DNA from: an uncultured Gaiellales bacterium
GTDB lineage: Bacteria; Actinomycetota; Thermoleophilia; RBG-16-64-13
DNA length: 64,000 nucleotides
Direction: 5' to 3'
Assembly: GCA_964592075.1 (NCBI GenBank)
Contig: CAZQDY010000006.1
Span: 3,942 to 67,941 of the forward strand
Shown here one piece after another: positions 24,930 through 44,539 of the stretch (position 1 is the first letter of the stretch; the number at the start of each line of letters is the position of its first letter). Position numbers and translations under genes: made by a program. The notes under the pieces were generated by a model that saw only the letters and a program-made list of their open reading frames with translations, made no database searches and had not been told where the DNA came from.

Positions 24930-25187
24930 ATGATGGATCAACCCAAGGTGTTCGTGTACGCTCTCAGTACCTGCGGTCACTGCAGGAACGCCAAGAAGCT
25001 GCTCGACGAGAACAATATCGAGTACGATTCCGTGGACGTCGACCTCCTGCCCAAGGACGAGCTCAAGACCACGCTCGACGACGTGCGCAAGGTCAATCCG
25101 CAGGCGGCCTTCCCCACCATACTGATCGGCGACAAAGTCATAGTCGGCTATCGTGAACTCGAGATCCTGGAGGCCCTGGGACTATGA
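24930..25187 (+). CDS. glutaredoxin-like protein (CxxC thioredoxin fold)
   Basis: MMDQPKVFVYALSTCGHCRNAKKLLDENNIEYDSVDVD… (85 aa). Confidence 0.8.
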   Translation: MMDQPKVFVYALSTCGHCRNAKKLLDENNIEYDSVDVDLLPKDELKTTLDDVRKVNPQAAFPTILIGDKVIVGYRELEILEALGL

Positions 25188-25546
25188 GCGACATCGACGA
25201 GCTCTACGAGCGGCTCAAGAGGGTGAACGAGCCTAAGGGCTACTACTTCAGCAAGAACGAGACTCTCGTCAAGCAGCTGATCGCGGGCCTGCTCACCAAC
25301 AAGGAGCGCTACGGGTACATGTGCTGCCCCTGCCGTCTCGCTTCGGGGAACCGCGAGAACGACAAGGACATCATCTGCCCTTGCGACTACCGCGAAGCCG
25401 ACGTCAAGGAGTACGGCAGCTGCTACTGCAACCTGTACGTCTCGAAGGAGTGGAACGAGGGGACCGTCGAGAACGTGCCGGTGCCCGAGCGCCGGCCCGA
25501 GGAGAAGGTCGCCTGGATGAAGAGCTGGCCGGGATTCGACGCGTAG
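25184..25546 (+). CDS. ferredoxin:thioredoxin reductase catalytic (beta) subunit-like protein
   Basis: FTR-C Cys pattern CCPCRL…CPCDY…CYCNLY; ATGA overlap with the glutaredoxin gene. Confidence 0.75.
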   Translation: MSDIDELYERLKRVNEPKGYYFSKNETLVKQLIAGLLTNKERYGYMCCPCRLASGNRENDKDIICPCDYREADVKEYGSCYCNLYVSKEWNEGTVENVPVPERRPEEKVAWMKSWPGFDA

Positions 25547-28791: not shown

Positions 28792-28823
28792 GCACGCAAG
28801 CATCGACCGACTGAGCATCGAAC

Positions 28824-28860
28824 GAAAGGGGAGGCCGGACCGGTCTCCCCTTTCTGCTTC
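28824..28860 (+). terminator. intrinsic terminator/attenuator hairpin after the SBP gene
   Basis: gaaaggggag-gccggaccggt-ctcccctttc followed by tgcttc. Confidence 0.55.
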
Positions 28861-28900
28861 ACCCGTCGTCGTGTCACGCACTGGATAGGCGCCCATCCCG

Positions 28901-30412: not shown

Positions 30413-31595
30413 CAGCCGCAAAGACGCCGGCCTCCCGCCCGCCGCCGGCCCGACGACGCGCAGGCGCTTCTCCCGGCAGACCTGGATCAACCTCGGTCTG
30501 CAGCTTTGCGCGCTGGTCCTGGCCTTCTTGTTCACCAGCGTCATCCTCCTGGTGGCGGGCGCGCCTCCGTGGCAGGCCTACGTCGAAATCGCCAAGGGAG
30601 CCGCGGAGTCGCTCACCGACGTCTCCAACGTGCTCGTCGCCTGGGTACCCTTGCTGCTGGCCGCGGCCGGGGTGCTCGTGACCTTCGCCGCCGGACTCTG
30701 GAACATCGGCGTAGAGGGCCAGATAGTGCTGGGCGCCGTGCTGACGACGCTGGTGCTGCGATTGCTCCAGGACACGACGTTGCACCCGGCTCTCATCATC
30801 GTGGTGGCCATGATCGCCGGCGTCGTGGGCGGGGCGCTGTGGGCCGCGCTGGCGGGCGTGCTCAAGACCTTCGGCGGAGTCAACGAGATCTTCGGCGGGC
30901 TGGGCCTCAACTTCGTGGCGACGGCCCTGACCCTCTGGCTCATCTTCGGGCCCTGGAAGCGCCCCGGCATCGGCTCCATGAGCGGCACCGAGCCTTTCCC
31001 AGACGAGTTGGGGCTGCCCACGGTGGGCGGGCTGCGGTTGAGTCTGTGGTCGCTCGGGCTCGGCATCGTGGCAGTGATCGTGGTCTACATCCTTCTCGAA
31101 CGGACCCACGTCGGCCTGCGCCTCAAAGCGGTGGGAAGGAACAGACGAGCCGCCTTCCTCCTCGGAGTGCCCACCTGGCAATATGGGATGCTGGCCTTCG
31201 TCATCTGCGGCGCGCTGGCCGGCCTGGCAGGCGGCATCCAGGTGACGGGCGTCTATCACCGGCTGATCCCGTCCATATCGAGCGGGTACGGCTTCCTGGG
31301 CCTGATGATCGGGATGCTGATCCTCTACCGAGCCGTCTGGGTCGCGCCGGTGGCTCTGTTCTTCGCGGCCCTCAACATCGGCAGCATCCAGCTGCCCATC
31401 GTCCTGAAGCTCGACTCGACCCTCTCCGGCGTCCTCCAGGGCGCCTTGGTACTCTTCGTGCTCCTCGTGGAGGGCGCCCGGCAACGGTACCTGCGCCGTG
31501 CCCGCGTCGCCGCGTCATCCGGGCCAGGGGCCCCGCCGCCCGTCTCCGACGTCGGCCCCGGCGCCCCGGCCGACATTCCCGGAGAAGCCTTATGA
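30405..31595 (+). CDS. ABC transporter permease (BMP-type, first)
   Basis: 396 aa multi-TM; overlaps the ATPase stop by 8 nt. Confidence 0.85.
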   Translation: MSDSRKDAGLPPAAGPTTRRRFSRQTWINLGLQLCALVLAFLFTSVILLVAGAPPWQAYVEIAKGAAESLTDVSNVLVAWVPLLLAAAGVLVTFAAGLWNIGVEGQIVLGAVLTTLVLRLLQDTTLHPALIIVVAMIAGVVGGALWAALAGVLKTFGGVNEIFGGLGLNFVATALTLWLIFGPWKRPGIGSMSGTEPFPDELGLPTVGGLRLSLWSLGLGIVAVIVVYILLERTHVGLRLKAVGRNRRAAFLLGVPTWQYGMLAFVICGALAGLAGGIQVTGVYHRLIPSISSGYGFLGLMIGMLILYRAVWVAPVALFFAALNIGSIQLPIVLKLDSTLSGVLQGALVLFVLLVEGARQRYLRRARVAASSGPGAPPPVSDVGPGAPADIPGEAL

Positions 31596-32590
31596 CCGGC
31601 CCCGAGATCGTCATCGGACTGGCAGGGGTGCTGACGACCGCCTCGCCCATCGTGGTGGCGACCATAGGGGAGACGTTCGCCGAGCGCGCCGGCGTTATCA
31701 ACCTCTCGGTCAACGGCACGATCCTGCTGTCGGCCATGGGTAGCTTCGTCGTCGCCCTGAGCACGGGGAGTCTGGTGCTGGGGTTCTTGGCCGGGGCCCT
31801 GATCGGGGCGGTGGTGGCGCTCATCGTGGCCTTCGGCAGCATCACCCTGCGTCAGTCGCAGGTGGCCATCGGTTTCGTGCTCACGCTCTTCTGCAGGGAC
31901 CTCGCCTACTTTCTGGGCAACCCCTTCATGGGCGAGAAGGGGCCCATCCTGAGCGTGCACCCCATACCGCTGCTGAAAGACATCCCCATCCTGGGGGCCA
32001 TGTTCTTCAAGCAGGACATCATGACGTATTTCAGCTTCGTGCTCATCTTGGCGGCCTGGTGGTGGATCTTCCGCACCCGGCCGGGTCTGACGCTGCGGGC
32101 GGTGGGCGAACGCCCCGAGGCGGCGTTCGCCCGGGGAGCCAGGGTCAATCTTATCCGCTGCCTCTATACGGCTCTCGGCGGAGCCCTGGTGGGACTGGCC
32201 GGCCCCATGTTCTCCCTCGGAGTCAAGGCAGGCTGGAAGGGCACCATATCGGGACTCGACGGGCTCGGGTGGATAGTCCTCGCCATCGTGATCTTCGGAG
32301 CGTGGAACCCCGTCCGGGCCGCCCTCGGCGCCTATCTGTTCGGCCTGCTGCAGTGGTTGAGTGTGGTGCTCCAACCCAGCCTGCCGGGCATACCCTCCCA
32401 GGTGCTGCAGGTGGCGCCCTTCCCCCTCATGATCCTCACCTTGCTCCTGGTGAACATCGGCAACGCTGAATGGGTGGAGCGCGTGTTGGCGGCCCTTCCC
32501 GAGCGTCCGCGCAGCGTGGCGGCGCGCATCTTCCGGGCCCTGCGAGTCGTCCAGCCGAGCAGCCTCGGTGTGCCTTTCGAGCGAGACTGA
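31592..32590 (+). CDS. ABC transporter permease (BMP-type, second)
   Basis: ATG 31592 is ATGA-coupled to the previous permease; MTGPEIVIGLAGVLTTASPIVVATIGETFAERAGV…; the 694-aa ORF 30506-32590 is an alternate-frame artefact upstream of this start. Confidence 0.85.
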   Translation: MTGPEIVIGLAGVLTTASPIVVATIGETFAERAGVINLSVNGTILLSAMGSFVVALSTGSLVLGFLAGALIGAVVALIVAFGSITLRQSQVAIGFVLTLFCRDLAYFLGNPFMGEKGPILSVHPIPLLKDIPILGAMFFKQDIMTYFSFVLILAAWWWIFRTRPGLTLRAVGERPEAAFARGARVNLIRCLYTALGGALVGLAGPMFSLGVKAGWKGTISGLDGLGWIVLAIVIFGAWNPVRAALGAYLFGLLQWLSVVLQPSLPGIPSQVLQVAPFPLMILTLLLVNIGNAEWVERVLAALPERPRSVAARIFRALRVVQPSSLGVPFERD

Positions 32591-32750
32591 CCCCAGTCCA
32601 TCGCAGTAGCTTATCCACGAGTATAGGTGAACGCGCTCATTCTAGGCCATTTGGACAGAGTCTGAGCCACACACCCTTGTTACCCTGATGTCGGGCCGTC
32701 GGAGAACCGGCGGCACGAGACCGACCGACAGCAGGGGTGGTGTTCGGACG

Positions 32751-34079
32751 ATGAGACCTATGAGCTTGTTCTGGGGCTGCACCATACCGGCCCGCTTCCC
32801 CTTCATCGAAAAGGCCAGCCGGGTGGTCCTTCGCGACCTCGGAGTGGAGCCCGTGGACGTGGCCGGGTTCACCTGTTGCCCCGAGACCACGCTGGTGAAG
32901 GCCGCGGACGAAGAGACCTACTACCTCACCGCCGCCCGCAACCTGGCCCTGGCCGGGCAGAACGCGCCGCTCCTCACGCCCTGCAACGGCTGCTATTCCA
33001 CCTTCAAGTCGGTCCTCGCCGATCTCAAGGTCGACTGGCGGCTCGAGCAGCGGGTCGACCGGCGCCTGGCCGCCGCCGGCCTGTCTCTTTCCAAGGACGT
33101 GGACGTCAGACATCTGGTGGAGTGGCTGAGCGAGGACCTCGGCCCCGCGGCCCTCAGCAAGCGTCTGGTCAAGCCGCTCTGGGGGATGAAGATCGCCGTG
33201 CACTACGGGTGCCATCTGTTGAGGCCGAGCCCCGCCATCCGGTGGGACAGCCCCACGGCGCCCACCAAGTTCGAGCAACTGGTGAGGGCTCTAGGCGCGA
33301 CCGTGGTCGACTACAAGACCAAGATGGATTGCTGCGGCAACGCGCTCGATAGGGTGGGCGAGCGGCAGGCCGCCATGGACATGATGCAGCGCAAGCTGAC
33401 CGACCTCAACGAGGTGGGGGTCGATGCCCTCGTGGTCTCGTGCCCGTCCTGCTTCCTTCAGTTCGATCTGAACCAGGCCGCCTTCGTTCGCAATTCGGGC
33501 TCGGACGGCCTGCCTGTCTTCTACATCACCGAGCTGATCGCGCTGGCGCTCGGCTACGATCCGGCCGAGCTGGGTCTCGCGATGCATCGGGTCACTCCGG
33601 TTGTCTTCCTCGAGAAATGGGCCGCCAAGCTGGAACAACGCGATGTGCTCGCCCGCTCGTTCAACCTCGCCGAACTCGAGATCTGCGCCGGCTGCCGGGC
33701 CTGCGACGCCGACTGCCCCGTGGCCCTCGCCGAGGAGGACTTCGTACCCTCCACCATCATCGGCCGTCTGCTGGCCGGCGAGGCGGAGGCCGTTCTCGCC
33801 GAGCCTGACCTCTGGCGGTGCACCGACTGCATGACCTGCTTCGAGCGTTGCCACAGCCGTATCGGCATGGCGCAGGTCTTCGAGAAGCTGAGGAGACTCG
33901 CGGGAGAGCGTGGACACCTACCGGCCGCCGTGCGTTCCAGCTACCAGGCCTTCGTCGATAACGGCGTCCTCGGCACGGGGCGCCCGGCTGTGAGGGAGAA
34001 GCTGGGTCTCCCCCCGTTGCCCGTCAACGGCTCCGAGCAACTCAAGAGCATCCTGGCGGAGCCGGGGGCCGAACGATGA
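32751..34079 (+). CDS. HdrB-HdrC-like fusion protein: two CCG (Cys-rich) domains followed by two 4Fe-4S ferredoxin motifs
   Basis: CCG motifs FWGCTIP…FTCCPE…C and HYGCHLLRP…DCCGN…CPSC; C-terminal CAGCRACDADCP and CTDCMTCFERC; stop overlaps the start of the downstream glutamate-synthase amidotransferase gene. Confidence 0.75.
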   Translation: MRPMSLFWGCTIPARFPFIEKASRVVLRDLGVEPVDVAGFTCCPETTLVKAADEETYYLTAARNLALAGQNAPLLTPCNGCYSTFKSVLADLKVDWRLEQRVDRRLAAAGLSLSKDVDVRHLVEWLSEDLGPAALSKRLVKPLWGMKIAVHYGCHLLRPSPAIRWDSPTAPTKFEQLVRALGATVVDYKTKMDCCGNALDRVGERQAAMDMMQRKLTDLNEVGVDALVVSCPSCFLQFDLNQAAFVRNSGSDGLPVFYITELIALALGYDPAELGLAMHRVTPVVFLEKWAAKLEQRDVLARSFNLAELEICAGCRACDADCPVALAEEDFVPSTIIGRLLAGEAEAVLAEPDLWRCTDCMTCFERCHSRIGMAQVFEKLRRLAGERGHLPAAVRSSYQAFVDNGVLGTGRPAVREKLGLPPLPVNGSEQLKSILAEPGAER

Positions 34080-35293
34080 GCCGCCGCGGCGCCCCAGGAC
34101 GAGAGTTCTCCCCCCGCCCCGCCTACCGGGAGGAAGCCGCCCAGCGCATCCTCGGCGGTTGTGGCCTCATCGGCATCTGCGACCAATCAGGCGAACGGAT
34201 GAGCGGGGAGCTCGTGCTGCGCGGCATGGCCTCCATGCACGACCGCGGCAACGGTCTGGGTGGCGGCTTCGCCGGCTACGGCATCTACCCGGAACTGCCG
34301 CACCTCTTCTGCTTCCACCTGCTCTATGACGACGACGTGGCCAAGGAAGACACCGAGTTCTACCTCAAGAAGCACTTCCGAGTGGTCATGGACGAGCCCA
34401 TACCCACGAAGCCCATCCGCGGCATCGAGGACGAGCCCATCCTATGGCGGTACTTCCTCGACATCGGGGAGGAGAGGCTGCACGAGACCCAACTGAGCCC
34501 CGAGGACTACGTGGTCCACGCGGTCATGGACGTCAACAGCTTCATCGACGGAGCCTTCGTCGCCTCGTCGGGCAAGAACATGGGGGCCTTCAAAGGCGTG
34601 GGCTTCCCCGAAGAGATCGGCGAGTTCTTCCGCATCGGCGACTACAGGGGCTGGACCTGGACCGGACACGGCCGTTTCCCCACCAATTCCCCCGGATGGT
34701 GGGGCGGGGCCCATCCGTTCGCTCTGCTCGACTATTCCATCGTCCACAACGGCGAGATCAGCTCCTACGGCATCAACGAGCGCTATCTGGAGATGTTCGG
34801 GTACAGGTGCTCGCTGCAGACCGACACCGAGGTGGTCACCTACCTCTTCGATCTGATGCTCCGCCGGCACGGACTATCCGTGGAGATGGCCTGCAAAGCG
34901 TTGGCCAGTCCCTTCTGGAAGGACATCGACCTCATGCCCGAGGAACAGCGCAGGCTGTTCACCGCGATACGGATGGTCTATGGGTCGGCCCTGCTCAACG
35001 GCCCATTCGCGGTGGTCTTGGGCATGACCGACGGCATGGTCGCTCTGAACGATCGCATCAAGCTACGCCCGCTGGTGGCCGCTCAGCATGGCGAGGTGGT
35101 CTATGTGGCCAGCGAGGAATCGGCGATCCGCGAGGTCTGTCCTCGCCCGGAGCGTAGCTGGATGCCCTTGGCCGGCGAGCCGGTGGTCGCCCGCGTGAGC
35201 GACAAGGGCCGGCAGAAGTCCATCTCCCAGGGCAGGCAGAGCGTCGGACAGAGGCGCGTCGCCCAGAGCGCGACCGCGCCGGGGGTGTTCTGA
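34076..35293 (+). CDS. glutamate synthase, class-II glutamine amidotransferase domain protein (archaeal-type split GOGAT, domain 1)
   Basis: …GGCGLIGICD… N-terminal nucleophile Cys region; …GHGRFPTNSPGWWGGAHPF…HNGEISSYG… typical Ntn amidotransferase; a processed propeptide or alternative start is likely. Confidence 0.8.
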   Translation: MSRRGAPGREFSPRPAYREEAAQRILGGCGLIGICDQSGERMSGELVLRGMASMHDRGNGLGGGFAGYGIYPELPHLFCFHLLYDDDVAKEDTEFYLKKHFRVVMDEPIPTKPIRGIEDEPILWRYFLDIGEERLHETQLSPEDYVVHAVMDVNSFIDGAFVASSGKNMGAFKGVGFPEEIGEFFRIGDYRGWTWTGHGRFPTNSPGWWGGAHPFALLDYSIVHNGEISSYGINERYLEMFGYRCSLQTDTEVVTYLFDLMLRRHGLSVEMACKALASPFWKDIDLMPEEQRRLFTAIRMVYGSALLNGPFAVVLGMTDGMVALNDRIKLRPLVAAQHGEVVYVASEESAIREVCPRPERSWMPLAGEPVVARVSDKGRQKSISQGRQSVGQRRVAQSATAPGVF

Positions 35294-36816
35294 TGGCCTA
35301 CACGACGTTCATCCCCCCGGAGTTCCGGGTGGTCATCGACAGGGAGGCCTGTCAGCAGTGCGGCCGCTGCGCCCAGCAGTGCGGCTGGAACGTCTACACG
35401 TTCGACAGCGAGGAGAGACTGCCGCACCCCGATCACAGCAAGTGCGCGGCTTGCCACCGCTGCGCCACCTTCTGTCCCGCGGGCGCCATAACCATCAAGA
35501 AGAACGACCTGGCGTTCAAACAGTCGGACAGCCTGTCGCCCGACCTGGTGAAGGCCATATGGAGGCAGGCCGAGACGGGGGGCGTGCAGCTCACCGGCAT
35601 GGGCAACGACAAGCCCTACCTGCGCGTCTTCGACCACCTCTTGCTGGACGCGTGCCAGGTGACCAACCCCTCCATCGACCCCCTGCGGGAGCCCATGGAG
35701 ATGCGGACCTTCCTGGGCCGCAAACCCGACTTTCTGGAAGTGGCCGAGAGCGGGCGCGCGGGTGGCGATCCCCGGCTTCTCACCGAGCTGGACCGGCAAC
35801 TGCAACTGGAAACTCCCATCATGTTCGGGGGCATGAGCTACGGCTCTGTGTCGCTGAGCGTGCACCGCTCCCTGGCCATGGCCGCGGCCGAGCTGGGCAC
35901 CTTCATGAATACCGGCGAGGGCGGACTGCATTCCGACCTGGAACCGTATCAGGATCACATCATCGTGCAGTGCGCTTCGGGCCGCTTCGGAGTGGATTCC
36001 GGCTACCTGCGGGCCGGCGCCGCCGTCGAGATCAAAATCGGTCAAGGAGCGAAGCCCGGCATCGGCGGGCACTTGCCCGGGGAGAAGATCGACTACCAGG
36101 TCTCGATCACCCGCATGATCCCCCAGGGCACCGACGCCCTCTCCCCCGCGCCGCATCACGACATCTACTCCATCGAGGACCTACGGCAGCTCATCTATGC
36201 TCTCAAGGAGGCCACCGGGTACAAGCCCGTCTCGGTGAAGATCGCCTGCGTGCACAACGTGGCCGCCATCGCCTCAGGCGTGGTCAGGGCGGGCGCCGAC
36301 ATCATCTACCTCGACGGTTTCCGCGGCGGCACCGGGGCCTCTCCCACCATCATCCGCGACCATGTGGGCCTCCCCGTCGAGATCGGCATCGCCACGGTCG
36401 ACCAGCGTTTGCGCGACGAGGGCATCCGCAACCGCGCCTCCATCGTGGCGGCCGGCGGCATCCGCGGCTCGGCCGACGTGGTCAAGGCCATCGCTCTGGG
36501 AGCAGACGCCTGCGCCATCGGGACGGCGGCCCTCGTGGCTCTGGGTTGCCATGTCTGTCAGAAGTGCCACACCGGCTGCTGCTCCTGGGGCATCTGCACG
36601 CAGCGGCCGGAGCTGACCCGGCGCCTGGACCCGGAGTGGGGAGCTTCGCAACTCGTCAACCTGGTGCGCGCCTGGACCCACGAGATGGCCGAGGTGCTCG
36701 GCGCCCTGGGCGTGAACGCCATCGAGAGCCTGCGCGGCAGCCGCGAGCGGCTGCGCGGCTTGGGCCTGGACAAGACCACTCTCGACATCCTGGGCGTGAA
36801 GCCGGCCGGCCTGTGA
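35293..36816 (+). CDS. glutamate synthase FMN-binding domain protein with N-terminal 2x[4Fe-4S] ferredoxin domain (archaeal-type GOGAT, domain 2)
   Basis: CQQCGRCAQQC and CAACHRCATFCP motifs; FMN/Fe-S core …GEGGLHSD…KIGQGAKPGIGGHLPGEKI…; 3Fe-4S-type Cys cluster CHVCQKCHTGCCSWGIC; ATGA-coupled to the upstream gene. Confidence 0.9.
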   Translation: MAYTTFIPPEFRVVIDREACQQCGRCAQQCGWNVYTFDSEERLPHPDHSKCAACHRCATFCPAGAITIKKNDLAFKQSDSLSPDLVKAIWRQAETGGVQLTGMGNDKPYLRVFDHLLLDACQVTNPSIDPLREPMEMRTFLGRKPDFLEVAESGRAGGDPRLLTELDRQLQLETPIMFGGMSYGSVSLSVHRSLAMAAAELGTFMNTGEGGLHSDLEPYQDHIIVQCASGRFGVDSGYLRAGAAVEIKIGQGAKPGIGGHLPGEKIDYQVSITRMIPQGTDALSPAPHHDIYSIEDLRQLIYALKEATGYKPVSVKIACVHNVAAIASGVVRAGADIIYLDGFRGGTGASPTIIRDHVGLPVEIGIATVDQRLRDEGIRNRASIVAAGGIRGSADVVKAIALGADACAIGTAALVALGCHVCQKCHTGCCSWGICTQRPELTRRLDPEWGASQLVNLVRAWTHEMAEVLGALGVNAIESLRGSRERLRGLGLDKTTLDILGVKPAGL

Positions 36817-36839
36817 ACAGCCGACGCGAGGAGCAGGTG

Positions 36840-37712
36840 ATGACACTCGACTCAGCCACAGTCCGCAGGGTACCCACCGGCCCGGCCCGCAAGGGGCCCA
36901 CGGGTATCGAGCCGGCCCGCCTCACCGCCGGACAGCCGGGGACCACGCGAGGCGCCGCGGCGCGAGAAGGCAGGCGGGCGGTCATCGACGGAACGAGCGT
37001 GTACTACAAGACCCTCAACGAGCAGATACGGGAAGAGATCGAGCAGGGCGCTGTCGAGGTGGTTCTGGAGAACATAGTCGGCCAGCGCTACATAGGCACC
37101 GGCCTCGCCTACCCGGATGTGACCGTGACCGTGAACGGCGTGCCCGGCAACGACCTGGCGGCTTTCATGAACGGCCCCACCCTCGTGGTCAACGAGAACG
37201 CCCAGGACGGCGTGGCCAACACCATGAATTCCGGTCTCGTGATCGTCAACGGTAACGCCGGCGACGTGCTCGGCTACGGCATGCGAGGCGGCTCCGTGTA
37301 CGTGGGGGGTGACGTCGGCTACCGCGTGGGCATCCACATGAAGGCCTTCGGCGCGAGCCTGCCGCTCATCGTCGTCGGCGGTCACGCCCGGGACTTCCTC
37401 GGAGAGTACATGGCGGGGGGCGAGATCGTGGTGCTGGGGATCGGCGACGACGACTCCTCCGTCGTCGGGTCGTATGTCGGCACCGGCATGCACGCGGGAG
37501 TCATGTACGTGCGCGGCCACGTGGCCGCGCACCAACTCGGCAAGGAGGTCCGCGTGGAACAACCCGGCGAGGCCGACCTTGTCCGTATTGCAGCCATCGT
37601 GGACGACTACTGCCGGGTGATGGAGCTCGACCCGCGGGAAGTGCTGCAGAGACCGTTCGTCAAGATCTATCCGTTCACCTCGAGGCCTTACGGCCGCATG
37701 TATGTCTACTAG
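36840..37712 (+). CDS. glutamate synthase GXGXG-motif domain protein (archaeal-type GOGAT, domain 3)
   Basis: Repeated beta-helix GxGxG-type segments (…LVIVNGNAGDVLGYGMRGGSVYVGGDVGYRVGIHM…VVLGIGDDDSSVVGSYVGTGMHAGVMYVRGHV…); ATG 36840 preceded by gaggagcagg. Confidence 0.85.
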   Translation: MTLDSATVRRVPTGPARKGPTGIEPARLTAGQPGTTRGAAAREGRRAVIDGTSVYYKTLNEQIREEIEQGAVEVVLENIVGQRYIGTGLAYPDVTVTVNGVPGNDLAAFMNGPTLVVNENAQDGVANTMNSGLVIVNGNAGDVLGYGMRGGSVYVGGDVGYRVGIHMKAFGASLPLIVVGGHARDFLGEYMAGGEIVVLGIGDDDSSVVGSYVGTGMHAGVMYVRGHVAAHQLGKEVRVEQPGEADLVRIAAIVDDYCRVMELDPREVLQRPFVKIYPFTSRPYGRMYVY

Positions 37713-37748
37713 GGTCCGCGATCGCCGCCACCCGGAAAGGAGCAATCG

Positions 37749-39080
37749 ATGACAGACAAGCTGACCAAGGAGGATGTCCTTCGCATCGTCGAGGACAAGC
37801 AGATCAAGTTCGTACGCTTCTGGTTCACCGACGTGCTCGGCAACCTGAAGAGCTTCGCCGTGACGCCGGCTGAGTTGGAGGGCGCGTTCGAGGAGGGCAT
37901 GGGCTTCGACGGCTCTTCGATCGAGGGTTTCACCCGCATCGAGGAGTCCGACATGGTGGCCTATCCCGACCCCGGCACCTTCGCGGTGCTCCCGTGGCGC
38001 GCCGGAGCCGGCGGCGCCGCCCGCATGTTCTGCGAGATCCGCACTCCCGACGGCGGTCCGTTCCCGGGCGATCCCCGCAACGTGCTCAAGAAGGTGGCAG
38101 CCAAGGCCGGGGCCATGGGCTACACCATGAACGTGGGCCCTGAGCTGGAGTTCTTCTACTTCCAGAACAGCTGCGGCACCGACGTGCTCGACCAGGGCGG
38201 GTACTTCGACCTCACCACGCTGGACGCCGGCAGCGACCTACGCCGCGACACCATCAACGCCCTGCACGCCTTCGGGATCCAGGTGGAGTATTCCCACCAC
38301 GAGGTGGCCCCCTCGCAGCATGAGATCGACCTCCGCTTCAAAGACGTGCTCACCATGGCCGACCAGGTCATGACCTACCGCCTGACGGTCAAGGAGATCG
38401 CCCAGCAAAAAGGGCTCTACGCCACCTTCATGCCCAAGCCCATGTTCGGGGTGAACGGATCGGGCATGCACGTCCATCAGTCCCTCTTCAAGGGCGCCAG
38501 CAACGCCTTCTTCGACGCGAACGACGAGTACAACCTCTCCAAGGTCGGCAAATCCTACATCGCGGGACTGCTGGCCCACATCAAGGAGATAGCCCTGGTG
38601 ACCAACCAGTGGGTGAACTCCTACAAGCGCCTGGTGCCCGGCTACGAAGCCCCGGTGTACATCTGCTGGTCGCGCCGCAACCGCTCCGCCATGGTGCGGG
38701 TGCCACTCTACAAGCCGGGCAAGGAGAACGCCACTCGCATCGAGCTCCGCAACCCCGACCCGGCCTGCAACCCCTACCTGGCCTTCGCGGCTATGCTGGC
38801 CGCCGGTCTGGACGGCATCGAGAAGGGCATGGAGCTGCCGCCCGAGGCGAGCAACAACATCTACCACATGACCGACGAAGAGCGGGCCGCAGCCGGCATC
38901 GACTCACTGCCCGAGGACCTCTACCAGGCCATCAAGGAGTTCGAGAAGTCAAGCTTCGTGCGCGAAGCGCTGGGAGACCACGTCTGCGACTACCTCGTCC
39001 GCAACAAGTGGGCCGAGTGGAACGAGTACAAGACGCTGGTCACCCCCTACGAGATCTCGCGCTATCTGCCCCTCCTCTAG
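37749..39080 (+). CDS. glnA: glutamine synthetase type I (GSI-alpha-like, 443 aa)
   Basis: MTDKLTKEDVLRIVEDKQIKFVRFWFTDVLGNLKSFAV…; catalytic motifs …MPKPMFGVNGSGMHVHQSLF…; RBS aaggag 7 nt upstream; no adenylylation-loop extension. Confidence 0.95.
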   Translation: MTDKLTKEDVLRIVEDKQIKFVRFWFTDVLGNLKSFAVTPAELEGAFEEGMGFDGSSIEGFTRIEESDMVAYPDPGTFAVLPWRAGAGGAARMFCEIRTPDGGPFPGDPRNVLKKVAAKAGAMGYTMNVGPELEFFYFQNSCGTDVLDQGGYFDLTTLDAGSDLRRDTINALHAFGIQVEYSHHEVAPSQHEIDLRFKDVLTMADQVMTYRLTVKEIAQQKGLYATFMPKPMFGVNGSGMHVHQSLFKGASNAFFDANDEYNLSKVGKSYIAGLLAHIKEIALVTNQWVNSYKRLVPGYEAPVYICWSRRNRSAMVRVPLYKPGKENATRIELRNPDPACNPYLAFAAMLAAGLDGIEKGMELPPEASNNIYHMTDEERAAAGIDSLPEDLYQAIKEFEKSSFVREALGDHVCDYLVRNKWAEWNEYKTLVTPYEISRYLPLL

Positions 39081-39096
39081 ACAGCACCCGAAGACC

Positions 39097-39141
39097 GACA
39101 GCCACCCTGCTGTCCGCCCGGCGGCCCCGGCCGCCGGGCGG
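39097..39141 (+). terminator. tandem GC hairpins downstream of glnA
   Basis: gacagc-caccct-gctgtc followed by ccgcccggcggcc-cc-ggccgccgggcgg (13-bp perfect stem). Confidence 0.55.
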
Positions 39142-39283
39142 TGCATCCACCGGTGACGCCGCAGACACCGAAGCCGGCGAAGCCCCGCTGGCAAGCGAAG
39201 CCGGGCTGGCTGACAGGGTCCTGCTACCGTGGGACGGCCGCGAGTGGAAATCCTCGTCTACAAGACTGACGCTGAGGTGTAGG

Positions 39284-39369
39284 CTGTGGGCGTACACGTC
39301 GGTGGAGGAGTCGCGATGCGCCCATCGCGCAGCCGGAACCGGCGTGTATGCCCACAGCCCCACTCATAG
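39284..39369 (+). promoter_or_regulatory. candidate cis-regulatory leader: 14-bp inverted repeat enclosing a strong SD plus 17-codon Arg-rich upstream ORF, immediately before ybjQ
   Basis: ctgtgggcgtacac (39284-39297) pairs with gtgtatgcccacag (39344-39357); nested hairpin gcgatg-cgcc-catcgc; ggaggag then ATG at 39316 encodes MRPSRSRNRRVCPQPHS* ending at 39369, 10 nt before the ybjQ TTG. Confidence 0.3.
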
Positions 39370-39379
39370 GGAGAAGACC

Positions 39380-39712
39380 TTGGACCACAGGCTGACCACT
39401 ACCGCTCTCACCATCCCCGGCTACCGCGTCACCCGCACTCTGGGTGTGGTGCGCGGGGTGACCGTGCGGGCCCGCTGGATCGGCAGCCAGATCACCGCCT
39501 CGCTCCGCACGCTCGGCGGCGGGCAGATCCCCGAGTACATCGAGCTATGCGAGCAGACCCGCGCTGAGGCCTTCGCCTGGATGGTGCAGCATGCCGAGCA
39601 GATGGGCGCCAACGCGGTCATCGCCGTCAGATACGACGCCACCGACCTGGGCAACAACATGACCGAGGTGTTGGCCTATGGCACCGCCGCCATCGTCGAG
39701 CCGGAGCAGTAG
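39380..39712 (+). CDS. ybjQ: YbjQ/UPF0145 family protein (DUF74)
   Basis: …ALTIPGYRVTRTLGVVRGVTVRARWIGSQITASLRTLGGGQIPEYIELCEQTRAEAFAWMVQHAEQMGANAVIAVRYDATD…; TTG start with RBS agggagaag. Confidence 0.7.
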   Translation: MDHRLTTTALTIPGYRVTRTLGVVRGVTVRARWIGSQITASLRTLGGGQIPEYIELCEQTRAEAFAWMVQHAEQMGANAVIAVRYDATDLGNNMTEVLAYGTAAIVEPEQ

Positions 39713-39735
39713 GGCGCACAGCCGGTCTCCCTTCG

Positions 39736-40077
39736 CTACGCCAACGCCGACACGCCCGTTTCGCCCGTGCGGATGCGCAGGCATTCGCCCATCTCAAGGA
39801 CGAAGATCTTGCCGTCGCCGATGCGGCCGGTGCGGGCGCCGCGCGCGATGGCGTCCACCGCCTGCCAGACGTTGTTGTTGCTGACCGCCACCTCCACCTT
39901 GATCTTGTGAAGGAGGCCGCCCCTCTCCACATGGCTCCGATATACCTCAGCGATGCCCTTCTGCCTGCCCCGGCCCATGACGTCGGAGACGGTCAGGAGA
40001 AAGACCTCCTCTTCCTCCAGCGCGGCCATGACCTCGTCCAGCCTGTCGGGCTGGATGATGGCGATGATGTACTTCAT
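39736..40077 (-). CDS. glnK: P-II nitrogen regulatory protein (GlnK-type), copy 2
   Basis: MKYIIAIIQPDRLDEVMAALEEEEVFLLTVSDVMGRGRQKG…; 113 aa; T-loop lacks the Tyr51 uridylylation site (YRSHVERG). Confidence 0.9.
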   Translation of the reverse strand: MKYIIAIIQPDRLDEVMAALEEEEVFLLTVSDVMGRGRQKGIAEVYRSHVERGGLLHKIKVEVAVSNNNVWQAVDAIARGARTGRIGDGKIFVLEMGECLRIRTGETGVSALA

Positions 40078-40210
40078 CACGTTCACTCCCGATGGAAATG
40101 GTCCACTCAGCCGGCGCGCGACCACAAAGACGGTCCGGCCCATTACAGCGCCCGACGCACCGGGTGGGAACTGCCAAAAGCCCAGAGACAGGGCGCGCAG
40201 GATGGCCACC

Positions 40211-40552
40211 CTAGCCGATGGCCACGCAGCCGGTCTCCCCGGTGCGGATGCGTATGCACTCCTCGAGATCGAGCACGAAGATCTTGCCGTCACCGATGTT
40301 GCCCGTCCGCGCCCCTCTGGTGATGGCCTCGATGGCCGGGATGGCGAACGCGTCGTTCACGGCGATCTCCACCTTGACCTTGCGAAGCAGCCCTCCGCGC
40401 TCCACATGGCTGCGATAGACTTCGGCGACCCCCTTCTGCCGGCCCCGGCCCATGACGTCCGACACCGTGATGAGGTTGACCTCTTCTTCCTCCAGCGCGG
40501 CCATGACCTCGTCGAGGCGGTCGGGCTGGATGATGGCGATGATGTACTTCAC
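40211..40552 (-). CDS. glnK: P-II nitrogen regulatory protein (GlnK-type), copy 1, directly downstream of amtB
   Basis: MKYIIAIIQPDRLDEVMAALEEEEVNLITVSDVMGRGRQKG…; tandem paralog of 39736-40077 with a 133-bp spacer. Confidence 0.9.
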   Translation of the reverse strand: MKYIIAIIQPDRLDEVMAALEEEEVNLITVSDVMGRGRQKGVAEVYRSHVERGGLLRKVKVEIAVNDAFAIPAIEAITRGARTGNIGDGKIFVLDLEECIRIRTGETGCVAIG

Positions 40553-40575
40553 TCTTCCGCTCCTTCCCTGCCGGT

Positions 40576-41811
40576 CTAGCCGACCAGCGTGTAGGCGGAT
40601 TCACTGTGCTGGGTGAGATCGAGGCCTATGCCCTCGTTCTCTTCGCTGACACGCAGGCCCACGACCTTGTCCACCAGCTTCAACAATCCATACGAAAGGA
40701 CGAAGGAGTACGCGGCGCACACCACCAGGGCGACGAACTGCCACAGGAGCAGCCTGCCGTTGCCGTGGAAGACACCGTCCGCGCCTGCGGGATTGATGAC
40801 AGTGGTGGCCCAGAAACCGGTGAGGAGGGCGCCCAGCATGCCGCCTATACCGTGCACCCCAAAGGCGTCGAGCGAGTCGTCGTAGCCGAGCCTGCCCTTC
40901 ATGACCACGGCGGCCAGATAGCACACCAGCCCCGCGAGGGCGCCGATGCCCAGGGCACCGAGCGGCGTCACGAAGCCCGCGGCCGGAGTCACGGCCACCA
41001 GACCGGCGACCGCGCCTGATATCGTCCCCAGGGCCGTGGGGCGCTTGCCCTTGATCCACTCCACCGCCGCCCAGGCAACAGCCGCCGCCGCGGCGCCCAG
41101 CTGCGTCGCCACGAAGGCCGACACCGAGAGCCCGTTCGCTCCCAGAGCGCTGCCGGCATTGAAGCCGAACCAGCCGAACCAAAGCAGAGCCGCCCCCAGG
41201 ATGGCGAACGGAAGGTTGTGGGGTGGCGAGGTGTCCGGGTACCCCTTCCGCTTGCCCAAGACGAGCGCCGCGGCCAGGGCCGCCATGCCGGCGTTGATAT
41301 GCACCACCGTGCCGCCCGCGAAATCGAGGGCTCCCAGGTCGCGCAGCCACCCGCCCACTCCCCAGACCCAGTGCGCCATGGGGTCGTAGACGATGGTCGC
41401 CCAAAGAACGGAGAAGAGCAGAAAGGCGCTGAACTTCATGCGTTCCGCGAAAGCGCCGATGATGAGGGCCGGCGTGAGGACGGCGAACATCATCTGGAAG
41501 ACCATGAAGAGCGTGTGCGGGATGGTCGCGGCATAGTCGGCATTGGGTTCGGCGCCCACCCCGATCAGAGCCGCCCAGCTGAAGTCCCCGATGAATCCTC
41601 CGTGGTCGGGGCCGAAGGCCAGACTGTATCCGAAGACCACCCACTGTATGCTCATCACTCCGAGCAGCATGAAGCACTGCATCATAATCGAGAGCACGTT
41701 CTTCCGCCGGACCAAGCCGCCATAGAAGAAAGCCAGCCCCGGAGTCATCAGCATCACGAGCGCGGTGCTGACGATCATCCAGGCGGTGTCTCCGGTGTCG
41801 ATCTCCGCCAT
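40576..41811 (-). CDS. amtB: ammonium transporter (Amt family)
   Basis: MAEIDTGDTAWMIVSTALVMLMTPGLAFFYGGLVRRKNVLS…; 11-TM Amt signature; start set at MAEID (the 5' extension in the ORF track is unlikely). Confidence 0.9.
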   Translation of the reverse strand: MAEIDTGDTAWMIVSTALVMLMTPGLAFFYGGLVRRKNVLSIMMQCFMLLGVMSIQWVVFGYSLAFGPDHGGFIGDFSWAALIGVGAEPNADYAATIPHTLFMVFQMMFAVLTPALIIGAFAERMKFSAFLLFSVLWATIVYDPMAHWVWGVGGWLRDLGALDFAGGTVVHINAGMAALAAALVLGKRKGYPDTSPPHNLPFAILGAALLWFGWFGFNAGSALGANGLSVSAFVATQLGAAAAAVAWAAVEWIKGKRPTALGTISGAVAGLVAVTPAAGFVTPLGALGIGALAGLVCYLAAVVMKGRLGYDDSLDAFGVHGIGGMLGALLTGFWATTVINPAGADGVFHGNGRLLLWQFVALVVCAAYSFVLSYGLLKLVDKVVGLRVSEENEGIGLDLTQHSESAYTLVG

Positions 41812-41882
41812 GTCTACCCTCCTCCATCCGGCCGGCCAGGGCTCCACCAGGAGCCGACCACTCGCCGGCGCGATTGCCGTGA

Positions 41883-41901
41883 CATGGCAATTACAGCGGA
41901 G
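41883..41901 (-). promoter_or_regulatory. palindromic candidate operator ATTGCC-N7-GGCAAT about 72 nt upstream of amtB
   Basis: attgccgtgacatggcaat (15 of 19 positions self-complementary) in the amtB / PucR-regulator intergenic region. Confidence 0.4.
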
Positions 41902-41996
41902 GAGAGTCGAGAAGGTTATCGCCTAATGTACGATAGATAGGCTGCTTTGTTGGCCTTATGTATATAAGTGGCCGGTCCAGAGGGGTGAGCGGGCTC

Positions 41997-43649
41997 CTAA
42001 CTCGTGATCAGACTCCGCGCCTTCAGCCCCAGACCCAGCCGCTCCTTGTGCTCGGTCTCAAAGGGGTTGAGGCCGCTGATCTCGGCGATCTTCTCCAGGC
42101 GATAGCGGATGGTGTGCCGGTGCGCGTAGAGCTCGGCCGCGGTCTCAGTCAGACGTTCGTTGTTCTTGAAGAAGACGGCAAGGGTCCGGGTGAGCTGGGT
42201 GCCGTTCGCTTCGTCATAACGGTCGACCGGCCCGATGGTGTCCTCGTACAGGGCCTGGATTTCTCCGGGGTCCCGCTCGTAGATGTCGAGCAGGAGCCGG
42301 TAGGTGCCCACGTCATAGAAGTGCATCACGCTGCCGGGCCCCTCCAGTTTCCGCCCCACTTTGAGGGCGACCAACGCTTCCTGGTAGCCTCTATCCATCT
42401 GCGCGGCGTACGCCGTGAATCCCCCGATGCCCACCGAGGTGCTCAGGCCGACGGTGTTCTGAGCCGACTCCTGGAGCGAGGCCGCCAGCCGTCGGAGCGC
42501 TATGGGATCATGAGCGGTGGCCCCGCAGACGAAGATCACCACCCGCCCCGACTTGAGACTGACGAGCGACGAGACCTCCGACCGGGCGACAAGGCGAGAG
42601 GAATGAGTGAAGAACTGTTCCATCTTCCTGTCCAGCTCCTCCTGGTCGAGACCCCGCTGGTGGACCAGCCCGTCGGCCTCGTCGATCCCCACCAGGACCA
42701 CCGCGGCCCCCTGACTCAGATCGCATCCCAGGAAAGAACCCCGCCTCAGCAGCGAATCCCCCGACCTCTCCCCTCCGCTGATGACGTCGTCGACGAAGTC
42801 GCCCTTCAGACGCACCTCGGTCTCGAAACGCACCCGGTCTTGAGCCATCTCGAGAGCCGCGATGGTCGCTGAGTGCTCGAGGATCAGCACCTCGTTGTCC
42901 GATAGAGCCTCGGCGTCGGTCAGCGCGCACAGATACCCGAGCCGCTCACGGCTGGCCACGATCGGCAGGGCGAACATCGAGGCCATAGAGTCCTCCTCGA
43001 CCCGGAAGGGCTTCTGGCTCGAACCCATCACCGCGAAACGCTCCCGCGTCTGCGGGCGTCGCAGGCCGGCGACGAGGTCGGCCGCCGCCACGGGCAGGTC
43101 GCCAGAGGCCGCCAGGAGCTCGAACGACGCGTCCATGATCACCACGGGGCTCTCCAAGAGACGCGACGCTTCATCGGCAAGCTCCACCCAGCCCCCTCCC
43201 CGGATGACTATGCCCAGCAGATCCCGATGGACCGACTGGGACTGCTCGAGCTGAGAGGCCTGACGATTGATGATCACCTCGGTGGCGTCCTGCATGAGGC
43301 GGGTCCAACGCAGGCTCTGCGGCACCTCAACGATCGGGAACTTCCTCTTCTCCGCCAGCTCGATGATGTCGGCGGGCAGGTTCTCCACAAAACGGGTGGT
43401 CTTCACGAAGAGCGCGGCGGCGTCGGCCATCATCACCCGTTTGCAGAACTCGCGCTGCCTCTCGGGATCGCCTTTGACGGCGAAGAGAGTGGAAAGGACC
43501 AACTCCCCTCCCGACAACCACTCGGCGATGTCGGGGACCTCCCCCACCGTCACCGAGGTGACCCGGCGCTCCAGCCCGTCCTCGCCCGCGAGCAACCGGG
43601 CGTCGTCCAGCACGGGAAGCGCAAGGATCTGTCTGACCGTCACAGGCAT
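41997..43649 (-). CDS. PucR-family transcriptional regulator (PucR C-terminal HTH plus N-terminal sensory/GGDEF-like region)
   Basis: C-terminal HTH …TETAAELYAHRHTIRYRLEKIAEISGLNPFETEHKERLGL…; 550 aa. Confidence 0.8.
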   Translation of the reverse strand: MPVTVRQILALPVLDDARLLAGEDGLERRVTSVTVGEVPDIAEWLSGGELVLSTLFAVKGDPERQREFCKRVMMADAAALFVKTTRFVENLPADIIELAEKRKFPIVEVPQSLRWTRLMQDATEVIINRQASQLEQSQSVHRDLLGIVIRGGGWVELADEASRLLESPVVIMDASFELLAASGDLPVAAADLVAGLRRPQTRERFAVMGSSQKPFRVEEDSMASMFALPIVASRERLGYLCALTDAEALSDNEVLILEHSATIAALEMAQDRVRFETEVRLKGDFVDDVISGGERSGDSLLRRGSFLGCDLSQGAAVVLVGIDEADGLVHQRGLDQEELDRKMEQFFTHSSRLVARSEVSSLVSLKSGRVVIFVCGATAHDPIALRRLAASLQESAQNTVGLSTSVGIGGFTAYAAQMDRGYQEALVALKVGRKLEGPGSVMHFYDVGTYRLLLDIYERDPGEIQALYEDTIGPVDRYDEANGTQLTRTLAVFFKNNERLTETAAELYAHRHTIRYRLEKIAEISGLNPFETEHKERLGLGLKARSLITS

Positions 43650-43737
43650 GGTGAAACGAAAGATAGCAGAGTGGTCACGGACCGTGCCCGCCGCCTATAC
43701 AGCGTCTGGTGTGCCGCCCGTCGCGGAGGGCTCGGCG

Positions 43738-44142
43738 TCAGTCCATGACCTGACTGCTCAGGATCGCCACAACAGACCCCGTGTCGGGCTCCAGTCGCTC
43801 CGGGCTGATCGCCCTACCCCCCGACTCCATATAGATGCCGACTCTGACTCGCCTGCCCCTCACATGCACCCATGTGGCGGAGACCAGAGAGAACCGTCGC
43901 CCCGTCGAAGAGCCCTCGCTCCGCGCTAGATAGCGTCTGAGGTCCTGTGTCCGCAAATCGATGCCCGGCGGCATTCCCACCTCCCCAGGCATATCTGGGG
44001 CGCTACTGGCTCCCAGCAGGTTGCCCAGGCGATCGAGCAGGACGATGCCGTACGTCGGCTGCGCAGAGGGCTTAGGGCGGCATGCAGGCACCCCTGGAAC
44101 AACAGGCAGTGGAACGACCCGGCTATGCACGAGTCCGCTCAT
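43738..44142 (-). CDS. hypothetical protein (low confidence)
   Basis: ORF with Pro/Gly-rich low-complexity translation (MSGLVHSRVVPLPVVPGVPACRP…); placement upstream of, and co-oriented with, the PucR regulator is the only support. Confidence 0.2.
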   Translation of the reverse strand: MSGLVHSRVVPLPVVPGVPACRPKPSAQPTYGIVLLDRLGNLLGASSAPDMPGEVGMPPGIDLRTQDLRRYLARSEGSSTGRRFSLVSATWVHVRGRRVRVGIYMESGGRAISPERLEPDTGSVVAILSSQVMD

Positions 44143-44539
44143 CTTCGCCTCAAGATTCGACCCGTCAGGAGCAGTCACTGGGGCGCCCTGAATGTCCCAC
44201 TCCGGCCGGGGGAACGCAAGACGAGCCACCGGAGATTCCCGCAATTTGCAGCAGAAAGAAAAAGACGCAATGAGCGGTGTTTTGGACGGCCCGCCCTGGG
44301 AACGGTTCGCTCCGGCCGTGAGAAACACGGCGAGGCTCTGCGGTGCCCAGCGGTGTTTCGCGAGGGGCCTCTCGCAGCCTCCGACCACGTGGCCTGAGCC
44401 GAAGCGCCCCGGCGCATGGTAAGATTTCGGGGCCGGAATCCACGATAGAATCGGCGGTCAATCCGTGCCGGGGTGTTGGGGGACGCCACCATCGGTGCGG
44501 TTCTCTTTGTGGCGCTATAGCGGAGGCTTCGCACTTACG

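Follow-up and report, generated by a model that had tools for sequence, protein, structure and literature searches.

Gene content and layout of the island

A cluster of ammonium-assimilation genes is described here from a stretch of 64,000 nucleotides (nt) of DNA, termed the window in the following, which belongs to contig CAZQDY010000006.1 of an uncultured Gaiellales bacterium. The G+C content of the window is 66%, and the open reading frames (ORFs) at 32.6–43.7 kb have a third-position G+C of the coding type. On the plus strand lie a gene for a fusion protein resembling HdrB and HdrC (hdrBC), the three genes of a split glutamate synthase (GOGAT; gltA, gltB and gltC), the gene for glutamine synthetase (GS; glnA) and ybjQ; this set converges on two glnK genes, amtB and a gene for a PucR-family transcription factor, all on the minus strand. 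Both the gathering of these functions in one island of about 11 kb and the convergent arrangement had been proposed in a first-pass annotation made from the sequence alone, and both were confirmed by ORF coordinates and by Pfam and NCBIfam matches, which backed every gene identity. The PucR-family gene had been regarded as the sole transcription-factor gene of the island; this agrees with our Pfam scan, which detected no other transcription-factor domain in the 40 window proteins that it covered, a set comprising all but a few small ORFs outside the island.

Other parts of the annotation had to be changed. The gap between the convergent stop codons is indeed short and free of hairpins, but it measures 23 nt (39713–39735) and not 24 bp: both genes have TAG as the stop codon, the last nucleotide of which is at 39712 in ybjQ, while that of glnK spans 39736–39738. 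Folding of 39680–39770 was no better than that of shuffled sequences on either strand (z = +2.3 and +0.7), and the terminator scan gave no candidate in the gap; a bidirectional terminator, which was considered, was found neither in the window nor in three relatives (L001, L002 and L010). The start of hdrBC had been placed at 32688, but the ATG there sits just 3' of a conserved -10 element; the start is at 32751, where ATGAGAnnnATGA contains the start kept in 11 relatives. For amtB, conservation in relatives places the start at 41811 instead of 41847, and it likewise set the starts of the GXGXG gene (36840) and of ybjQ (TTG at 39380). Finally, the sequence suggests about four transcription units where two operons had been assumed: (1) hdrBC-gltA-gltB-gltC-glnA, (2) ybjQ, (3) amtB-glnK with the second glnK, and (4) the PucR-family gene.

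The closest homologues of the HdrBC-like protein (52–75% identity) occur in uncultured Actinomycetota labelled Thermoleophilia, Gaiellales, RBG_16_64_13, Coriobacteriia or Anaerosomatales; related loci are designated by L numbers below. For the analysis of synteny ten window proteins were mapped on 80 species-level loci around HdrBC homologues, namely the best 80 of 296 matching stretches, and all denominators refer to loci with enough downstream DNA. Among these, the closest clade alone has the full set of ybjQ, glnK, amtB and the PucR-family gene (L001 and L002; also L006 and L010, where the PucR gene would lie beyond, or lies at, the end of the DNA examined), while L007 and L009 possess the remaining genes with no match to ybjQ. 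Comparison of these sequences supports the view that the island is a real nitrogen-assimilation cluster which has been maintained in evolution. Ammonium assimilation itself is ordinary; the cluster is unusually complete and contains two non-standard, conserved parts, namely a candidate regulator of the PucR family along with a new operator, and an HdrBC-like fourth gene of the GOGAT set.

An operator-like box shared by the hdrBC and amtB promoters

Upstream of hdrBC (plus strand, 32612–32659) two operator-like boxes were recognized, box 1 with TATCCACGAGTATAGG at 32612–32627 and box 2 with TAGGCCATTTGGACAGA at 32643–32659. They are followed by the element TTGTTACCCT (plus strand, 32677–32686; consensus TTGcTATCCT), which is near-invariant in the alignment and from which, as we infer, the hdrBC-GOGAT-glnA unit has its extended promoter -10. 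When the sequences 5' of hdrBC were aligned for the window and ten relatives, tgTCCAnctGTAcA, tAGGCCAnnTGGAtAgA 32 nt further on, and the extended -10 TTGcTATCCT were conserved and the rest had diverged. The amtB promoter region (minus strand, 41888–41966) has a -10-like element, GCTGTAATTG, at 41888–41897 and boxes at 41919–41934 and 41951–41966; alignment of 12 amtB upstream regions gave the pattern tCCAAATGTACAAg-N14-16-cTTGTAC (or cTTGGAT)-N~32-gnTGTAAT. Common to both promoters is thus a core of 12 nt, TCCAAnTGTACA, plus a second box, TTGKAY, situated 24–32 nt downstream. The core was also present before second amtB copies, before glnA of L128, a locus with classical gltB-gltD, and before hdrBC in a more distant clade. 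A palindrome just past the amtB -10 (ATTGCC-N7-GGCAAT, about 41873–41891) was dropped as a candidate; it is not conserved in relatives.

A weight matrix was built from 21 sites of relatives, with the window excluded, and was used for scanning the whole window on both strands (127,970 positions). Seven of the ten best positions fell within the hdrBC and amtB promoters, which together comprise about 300 nt (about 150 bp each): the hdrBC boxes had ranks 3, 6, 8 and 10, the amtB boxes ranks 2, 4 and 9. Such a concentration is far from chance in spite of the A+T bias of the matrix.

Both boxes are situated upstream of the -10/-35 region, the usual position of activator sites, and their location 5' of an extended -10 would provide the geometry of an activator site. 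Consensus sites of TnrA/GlnR, NtcA, actinobacterial GlnR, AmtR, NrpR, Crp/GlxR and Bacillus subtilis PucR had no match without mismatches in the island promoters; canonical boxes of the GlnR/NtcA type, whose presence would have spoken against the first-pass annotation, are therefore not found there. A single AmtR-like site with one mismatch was rejected, as it overlaps a GTACA box and is not shared by the relatives. In known amtB-glnK operons under GlnR, AmtR, TnrA, NtcA or NrpR, glnK also follows amtB, and clustering and apparent co-regulation with glnA and GOGAT by way of activator-placed sites are found as well; here, by contrast, the operator (TCCAAnTGTACA / TTGKAY) fits none of their consensus sites and the adjoining regulator belongs to the PucR family. 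Since the same lineage-specific operator precedes units 1 and 3, control of the hdrBC-glnA and amtB units by one common DNA-binding protein appears quite probable.

The three top-ten positions outside the two promoters are at 10277–10292, 48709–48724 and 58660–58675, and their contexts were listed as inside a DUF4386 gene (the best match of the window), intergenic before an MMPL gene and a 115-amino-acid (aa) ORF, and upstream of an H+-pyrophosphatase gene. A weaker match (39249–39264, rank 16) falls on the promoter-like sequence by which ybjQ is preceded. Matches outside the two promoters could possibly represent further members of a regulon, or chance.

The PucR-family protein as candidate regulator

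The PucR-family gene (minus strand, 41997–43649; 550 aa) is located directly upstream of amtB and is co-directional with it. Its product has the domains PF07905 (116 bits), PF17853 GGDEF_2 (50 bits) and PF13556 HTH_30 (59 bits), all above cutoff, and an additional weak CodY-GAF-like stretch in Pfam. The orthogroup is tight, with more than 120 clusters of 65–98% identity and a length of about 550 aa. Wherever amtB was present in the DNA examined, the orthologue adjoined amtB-glnK, i.e., in the window, in six related loci (among them L001, L002, L007, L009 and L010) and in five further contigs, altogether about a dozen genomes. In the five further contexts (L127–L131) the PucR gene is flanked by amtB-glnK pairs, one always co-directional and just downstream, and often another one divergent and upstream; the adjacency includes L128 and L131, where the island has a classical gltB-gltD, and L129, with glycosyltransferases on the other flank. 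In L003 and L014, whose islands are without amtB, ybjQ is followed directly by the PucR gene.

The likeness of the protein to regulators such as PucR, PutR and AdeR of B. subtilis, GabR of Corynebacterium glutamicum and CdaR of Escherichia coli consists in the PucR N-terminal domain, GGDEF_2 and HTH_30, and the family is typically tied to the metabolism of nitrogen compounds. Known members serve catabolic pathways (purines, proline, alanine, gamma-aminobutyric acid), whereas the present orthogroup is tied to core assimilation genes; moreover, the box of B. subtilis PucR is absent from the island promoters. A literature search on PucR in connection with amtB yielded no earlier description.

Judging from the conserved adjacency, we consider the chances about evenly divided that the PucR-family protein is the factor which binds the shared box. 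It would then act under nitrogen scarcity by inducing GS, GOGAT and the uptake of ammonium, and it could sense a metabolite by its N-terminal and GAF-like domains, or it could sense GlnK.

Alternatively, the protein at the operator might be a global nitrogen regulator whose gene lies elsewhere in the genome, such as a GlnR of the OmpR type with a diverged site, or some other factor. The PucR-family protein would then be specific for one pathway; it might control amtB-glnK only, or else a function in catabolism or uptake encoded nearby, for instance the Bmp/PnrA-type ABC transporter at 27463–32590. Several observations speak for this and against a role of the PucR-family protein at the box. A regulator encoded elsewhere could indeed bind it: in a second clade (L015, L017, L018 and L021) the box precedes hdrBC and there is no PucR gene within 10 kb, although this is not surprising if amtB and the PucR gene are located elsewhere in those genomes. 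In the window, the promoter-like region of the PucR gene (minus strand, 43660–43703) possesses an extended -10, CTGCTATCTT, and only a weak box, GCTGTATAGG (rank 190), the best matrix position upstream of the gene being that at 43828–43843 (rank 97), so that no sign of autoregulation is apparent. Directly before the island are the genes of the Bmp-type transporter, the last of which shows synteny in close relatives. Characterized members of the family, such as B. subtilis PucR, PutR and AdeR, are pathway-specific regulators of the catabolism of nitrogen compounds. A report on C. glutamicum describes GabR as a further one of this type (PMC7652997). Against a regulator from elsewhere stand the persistence of the PucR gene beside amtB-glnK while every other neighbour changes, the dissimilarity of the box to the sites of actinobacterial GlnR, of AmtR and to other known consensus sites, and the lack of a second regulator among the 40 window proteins scanned. 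On balance we hold this alternative to be rather unlikely, though to be kept in view.

The HdrBC-like protein and the split glutamate synthase

The first gene of unit 1 (plus strand, 32751–34079) encodes an HdrB-HdrC fusion of 442 aa with two CCG domains and two ferredoxin-type 4Fe-4S motifs. Pfam gave CCG (1e-29, two matches) and Fer4; among solved chains the closest were HdrB (E = 2e-58, full length) and the cluster-binding half of HdrC. The CCG pattern Cx31-39CCx35-36CxxC occurs twice (C10, C42-C43, C78, C81; C154, C194-C195, C231, C234), as does the ferredoxin-type CxxCxxCxxxC (C312/315/318/322; C357/360/363/367), and all of these cysteines were invariant in 18 homologues. The scores remained below the NCBIfam equivalog cutoffs, with 233.6 versus 345 bits for TIGR03288 (HdrB) and 55.8 versus 160 bits for TIGR03290. 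With the CoB-CoM HdrBC and bacterial Hdr-like or CCG proteins the fusion therefore has in common the full-length similarity to HdrB, the cluster part of HdrC and all cluster cysteines; it differs from CoB-CoM HdrBC by the fused order B-C, the scores below equivalog cutoffs, the lack of an adjacent hdrA (the neighbours are an ABC permease gene and the GOGAT genes) and a context of GOGAT instead of energy metabolism.

The three following genes, all on the plus strand, encode the subunits of a split GOGAT: a class II glutamine amidotransferase (GAT; 34076–35293; GATase_6/7/2), whose start overlaps the hdrBC stop (ATGA); an FMN synthase subunit (35293–36816; PF01645, 5e-139, 464 bits) with an N-terminal 2x[4Fe-4S] ferredoxin domain of the Fer4 families; and a GXGXG subunit (36840–37712; PF01493, 1e-30, 107 bits). 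The FMN subunit matches residues ~850–1200 of the solved large chains of GltB and ferredoxin-dependent GOGAT (Fd-GOGAT). Amidotransferase, Glu_synthase plus Fer4, and GXGXG are thus found on three consecutive ORFs, and their order was kept in 63–68 related loci. Downstream of hdrBC, the GAT gene was present in 68 of 69 loci, the FMN subunit gene in 64 of 65, the GXGXG gene in all 63, and glnA in 44 of 57, at a distance of up to about 10 kb.

Because of this near-universal first position, the overlap of stop and start codons and the location of the regulatory signals upstream of hdrBC, the HdrBC-like protein is probably a fourth subunit of the split GOGAT, providing electron input; it is gene order from which the association is deduced. 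Electrons would pass from the 4Fe-4S clusters of the protein to the FMN subunit, entering at its ferredoxin domain, and the protein would take the place of GltD in NAD(P)H-dependent GOGAT, or that proposed for an FrhB-like subunit in the GOGAT of methanogens. In the latter organisms, an FrhB-like fourth gene was proposed to encode the F420H2-oxidizing subunit of a putative F420-dependent GOGAT, FGltS (PMC3087415, PMC3448663). The archaeal-type split GOGATs, including FGltS, resemble the present system in having three functional regions as separate genes and an extra gene in the cluster which is thought to bring electrons (PMC3087415, PMC3448663). The extra gene here, however, encodes a fusion of HdrB and HdrC that carries two CCG (noncubane 4Fe-4S) motifs, and neither an FrhB-like F420H2 dehydrogenase nor GltD, and the hosts are Actinomycetota. 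No description of a pairing of HdrBC with GOGAT was found in the searchable literature, and the solved structures included neither a split GOGAT nor a GOGAT chain with an HdrBC-like subunit.

Evidence on the status of hdrBC came also from Coriobacteriia-type loci (L027, L029, L033, L035, L047, L049, L061, L072 and L080). In these a conserved leader lies between about 200 and 20 nt before hdrBC (locus positions ~9800–9990) and consists of a -10, a tandem pair of hairpins whose hexaloops read AACGRC, and a terminator with a T-run, which is the pattern of an ANTAR target; the match to the Rfam narK motif was weak (18 bits). The same GOGAT operon would thus be under a different control device in that class, and since the leader sits before hdrBC and not before the GAT gene, hdrBC should belong to the nitrogen-regulated GOGAT unit. 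A leader of the ANTAR type is absent from the window, where a single small conserved hairpin (32695–32714) is all that the hdrBC 5' untranslated region contains.

It could be argued that the HdrBC-like protein is not a part of GOGAT but a separate Fe-S oxidoreductase, LutA/GlcF/GlpC-like or disulfide-reducing, which merely shares the operon. Proteins with CCG domains serve many substrates, as is also apparent from the NCBIfam matches of the present protein to SdhE, LdhH, TfrB, GlpC and GlcF, and no such subunit occurs in solved GOGATs or in those found in the literature. As to the proposed role, a physical association with GOGAT is deduced from gene order, and domains of the HdrB type normally act on disulfides or quinones, so that the fit with electron input is not an obvious one. 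Against a mere neighbour stand the position of hdrBC before the GOGAT genes in 68 of 69 loci with only 51–75% identity of the HdrBC-like proteins to that of the window, the overlap of its stop codon with the GAT start, and its location downstream of a regulatory leader or promoter in both clades. In addition, genomes with classical gltBD had no hdrBC beside the island in the DNA examined, which fits a role made needless by GltD. We therefore regard a separate oxidoreductase as unlikely, and fourth-subunit status as the better explanation of the gene.

Overall reading and significance

Taken as a whole, the reading of the locus with about four units, a shared operator, a PucR-family protein as candidate for its binding and an HdrBC-like fourth GOGAT subunit is moderately favoured by us. 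With respect to the operator some reservations apply: three of the top-ten matrix matches lie elsewhere (10277, 48709 and 58660); the matrix is A+T-rich, and so is intergenic DNA, which inflates the scores; the boxes of the window are more degenerate than those of its relatives; and the spacing from box to box differs between the promoters (24 versus 32 nt). That the clustering would reflect inherited gene order without common control, with the boxes being promoter-proximal A+T-rich sequence conserved for other reasons, is nevertheless very improbable, since, short and A+T-rich as the boxes are in a genome of 66% G+C, and in spite of the stray matches and unequal spacing, the 12-nt core TCCAAnTGTACA is found at non-homologous promoters (hdrBC, amtB, the second amtB and glnA of L128), and is repeated in genomes that have otherwise diverged in the intergenic sequence around it, and since seven of the ten best matches fall within about 300 nt of a 64-kb window.

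A stronger version, in which the GOGAT of Actinomycetota forms a new class characterized by HdrB-HdrC as its obligatory fourth subunit and, at the same time, the PucR-family protein is a master nitrogen regulator recognizing the TCCAAnTGTACA operator, must be considered doubtful. If it were true, electrons would enter GOGAT via noncubane 4Fe-4S clusters of the HdrB type, and their source could be a thiol/disulfide couple or a dedicated low-potential carrier, for instance, in place of NAD(P)H, directly bound ferredoxin or F420H2; and the PucR family would be a type of regulator not yet assigned to central nitrogen control in any phylum. For central nitrogen control, the major lineages each have a master regulator of their own (NtrC, GlnR, TnrA, AmtR, NtcA, NrpR). 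The PucR-family protein, together with a defined operator, offers a concrete candidate for a master regulator in a deep, uncultured actinobacterial lineage which is common in soils and sediments. The pairing of HdrBC with GOGAT bears on a long-open question, namely what donates electrons to archaeal-type GOGAT. It suggests that the module in charge of this could be interchangeable, being GltD, FrhB-like or HdrBC-like.

Transcription units and the ybjQ gene

The genes of unit 1 are tightly packed, with a 4-nt overlap of hdrBC and the GAT gene (ATGA), a 1-nt overlap of the GAT and FMN subunit genes, and then gaps of 23 nt and 36 nt; they are probably translationally coupled. The last of them, glnA (plus strand, 37749–39080), begins 36 nt past the GXGXG gene and encodes a type I glutamine synthetase (Gln-synt_N/C; TIGR00653, 520 bits, above cutoff). 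It is followed by a spacer of about 300 nt which folds far better than shuffled sequences (z = -5.7) and which begins with terminator-like hairpins (plus strand, 39097–39141), GACAGCCACCCTGCTGTC, then CCGCCCGGCGGCC-CC-GGCCGCCGGGCGG. The larger, GC-rich hairpin (39114–39141) was found at the same place in L001–L004, L010 and L014 and was diverged in L006; in L010 there is a T-run behind it, while the window has no U-tract. We infer from its position and conservation that it marks the end of the glnA unit. A consensus scan of the island for promoters and terminators was uninformative, the counts being not above those of shuffled sequences.

Ahead of the larger hairpin, at the glnA stop, is a small one, GACAGC-CACCC-GCTGTC (39097–39114), which is near-identical in L001–L004, L010 and L014 and diverged in L006; a part of it is duplicated in the window (39081–39090). 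In L010 the spacer between glnA and ybjQ (16479–16928) contains two direct repeats of about 130 nt in place of the hairpin element described below.

The ybjQ gene (plus strand, 39380–39712; YbjQ_1/DUF74, PF01906, 9e-32; 110 aa; TTG start) is located about 300 nt beyond glnA and is preceded by a promoter-like sequence of its own. Since a terminator-like hairpin probably ends the glnA unit and ybjQ has this sequence, it would form a separate unit. The pairing of glnA and ybjQ is kept also in genomes with classical gltBD; in L127, L128 and L131 ybjQ comes after glnA, usually with an Amidohydro_2 gene next. The literature on YbjQ contained, as far as our searches went, no earlier description of such a link, and the conserved pair could provide a first functional lead for the uncharacterized YbjQ/DUF74 family.

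The amtB gene and two P-II genes

The product of amtB (minus strand, 40576–41811; 411 aa) was identified as an ammonium transporter by PF00909 (8e-131) and TIGR00836 (476 bits, above cutoff). Twenty-three nt after it follows glnK copy a (minus strand, 40211–40552; PF00543; 113 aa), and then copy b (minus strand, 39736–40077; PF00543; 113 aa), its tandem duplicate, with 76% nt identity between the two. Assignment to GlnK is based on the P-II family match of both copies and on the Amt gene directly 5', a pairing which recurs in relatives. Two adjacent glnK genes without an intervening amtB were found only in the window among the loci examined; relatives often have the order amtB-glnK-amtB-glnK. 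The spacer of 133 nt 5' of copy b (minus strand, 40078–40210) contains an amtB-like -10, CGCTGTAATGG, at 40140–40150 and a block in common with the amtB 5' region; comparison of the two gave two short colinear blocks with a score of 25 versus 15.7 ± 2.3 for shuffled sequences (maximum 30). This is suggestive of a remnant of the promoter of a lost second amtB, although the blocks are too short to be sure.

Tyr51 of the T-loop is the site of uridylylation or adenylylation in proteobacteria and other actinobacteria. Both P-II proteins of the window presumably have Glu at position 51 in place of Tyr, with Tyr46 present, as judged from a by-eye alignment to the E. coli GlnK sequence.

A dispersed hairpin element before ybjQ

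The spacer between glnA and ybjQ contains a palindromic hairpin (plus strand, 39282–39359) with the core GGAGGAGUCGCG-loop-CGCGCAGCCGGA inside a variable long stem. The family to which it belongs has the core GGARGRRUCG...CGCAGCYGGA; its outer stems vary freely and always pair. In 16 copies compensatory changes were found in all 16 outer-stem pairs, and 90% of the cells were paired, versus 26–44% in slid controls. A covariance model made from the hairpin gave a single match in the window (83 bits); in the 80 genome loci it detected copies only upstream of ybjQ, with up to four in tandem. A scan of metagenomes for the core showed copies between convergent gene ends and 5' of unrelated genes, in either orientation. 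The products of two genes with the hairpin 5' resembled a dCMP deaminase and a flavin reductase, as read by eye from translations. Diverged copies in both orientations were clustered within single intergenic regions; copies were present in L003 (15979–16227), L014 (16576–16938), L088 (2692–3183), L084 (1457–1675) and L105 (557–1363). Upstream of ybjQ the element is missing in L004, L006, L010, L127, L128 and L131. Around the hairpin, the metagenome contig fragment L124 is the same as the window over the ~150 nt compared.

The sequence had been annotated as a leader; a leader specific to ybjQ is not tenable, since the sequence is a copy of a dispersed element that many relatives lack before ybjQ. 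A dedicated riboswitch or leader for ybjQ or glutamine was rejected also in view of the unrelated contexts, both orientations and clusters, and of the Rfam searches, which gave no hit at E <= 1 over 30000–46000 and, for the 361-nt spacer, only generic hairpin matches far below gathering scores. Because of its spread over contexts and its absence before many ybjQ genes, we read 39282–39359 as a palindromic element of the repetitive extragenic palindromic (REP) type which appears to have landed in the spacer. REP sequences and bacterial interspersed mosaic elements (BIMEs) are likewise intergenic and strongly paired, occur in both orientations, clustered or in tandem, 5' of genes as well as at their ends, and copies on the same contig are alike; they differ from the present family, in which the conserved part is an apical core with two purine-rich internal loops and the long outer stem varies. 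Binding of a protein or ligand, or a function as regulatory RNA, is possible.

Neighbouring genes

The Bmp/PnrA-type ABC transporter (27463–32590), with a binding protein, an ATPase and two permeases, ends 160 nt before hdrBC, and eleven close relatives (L001–L007, L009–L012) show synteny at the end of the last of its permease genes. It may be an uptake system for nucleosides or other nitrogen compounds belonging to the same neighbourhood. Seven kb upstream of the HdrBC-like gene, beside a 3-phosphoglycerate dehydrogenase gene, is a homologue of the gene for the catalytic chain of ferredoxin:thioredoxin reductase (25184–25546); it is mentioned because its product, like the HdrBC-like protein, is an Fe-S protein acting on disulfides, and no link is claimed.

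On the other side, the stretch of about 890 nt upstream of the PucR gene (43650–44540) has no ORF of coding-type composition and no Rfam match. A search for a gene remnant gave only a faint P-II-like match of 21 residues (minus strand, 43884–43946). Relatives have a divergent amtB-glnK pair or a membrane-protein gene at this position, and the stretch may be a decayed remnant. Beyond it, a large gene for a "CoA enzyme activase" (BcrAD_BadFG plus DUF2229; 44540–47665 in the window) stays by the PucR/amtB cluster in L127, L128, L130 and L131, and an MMPL transporter gene (49081–51645) was found beside the activase gene only in the window and in L130.

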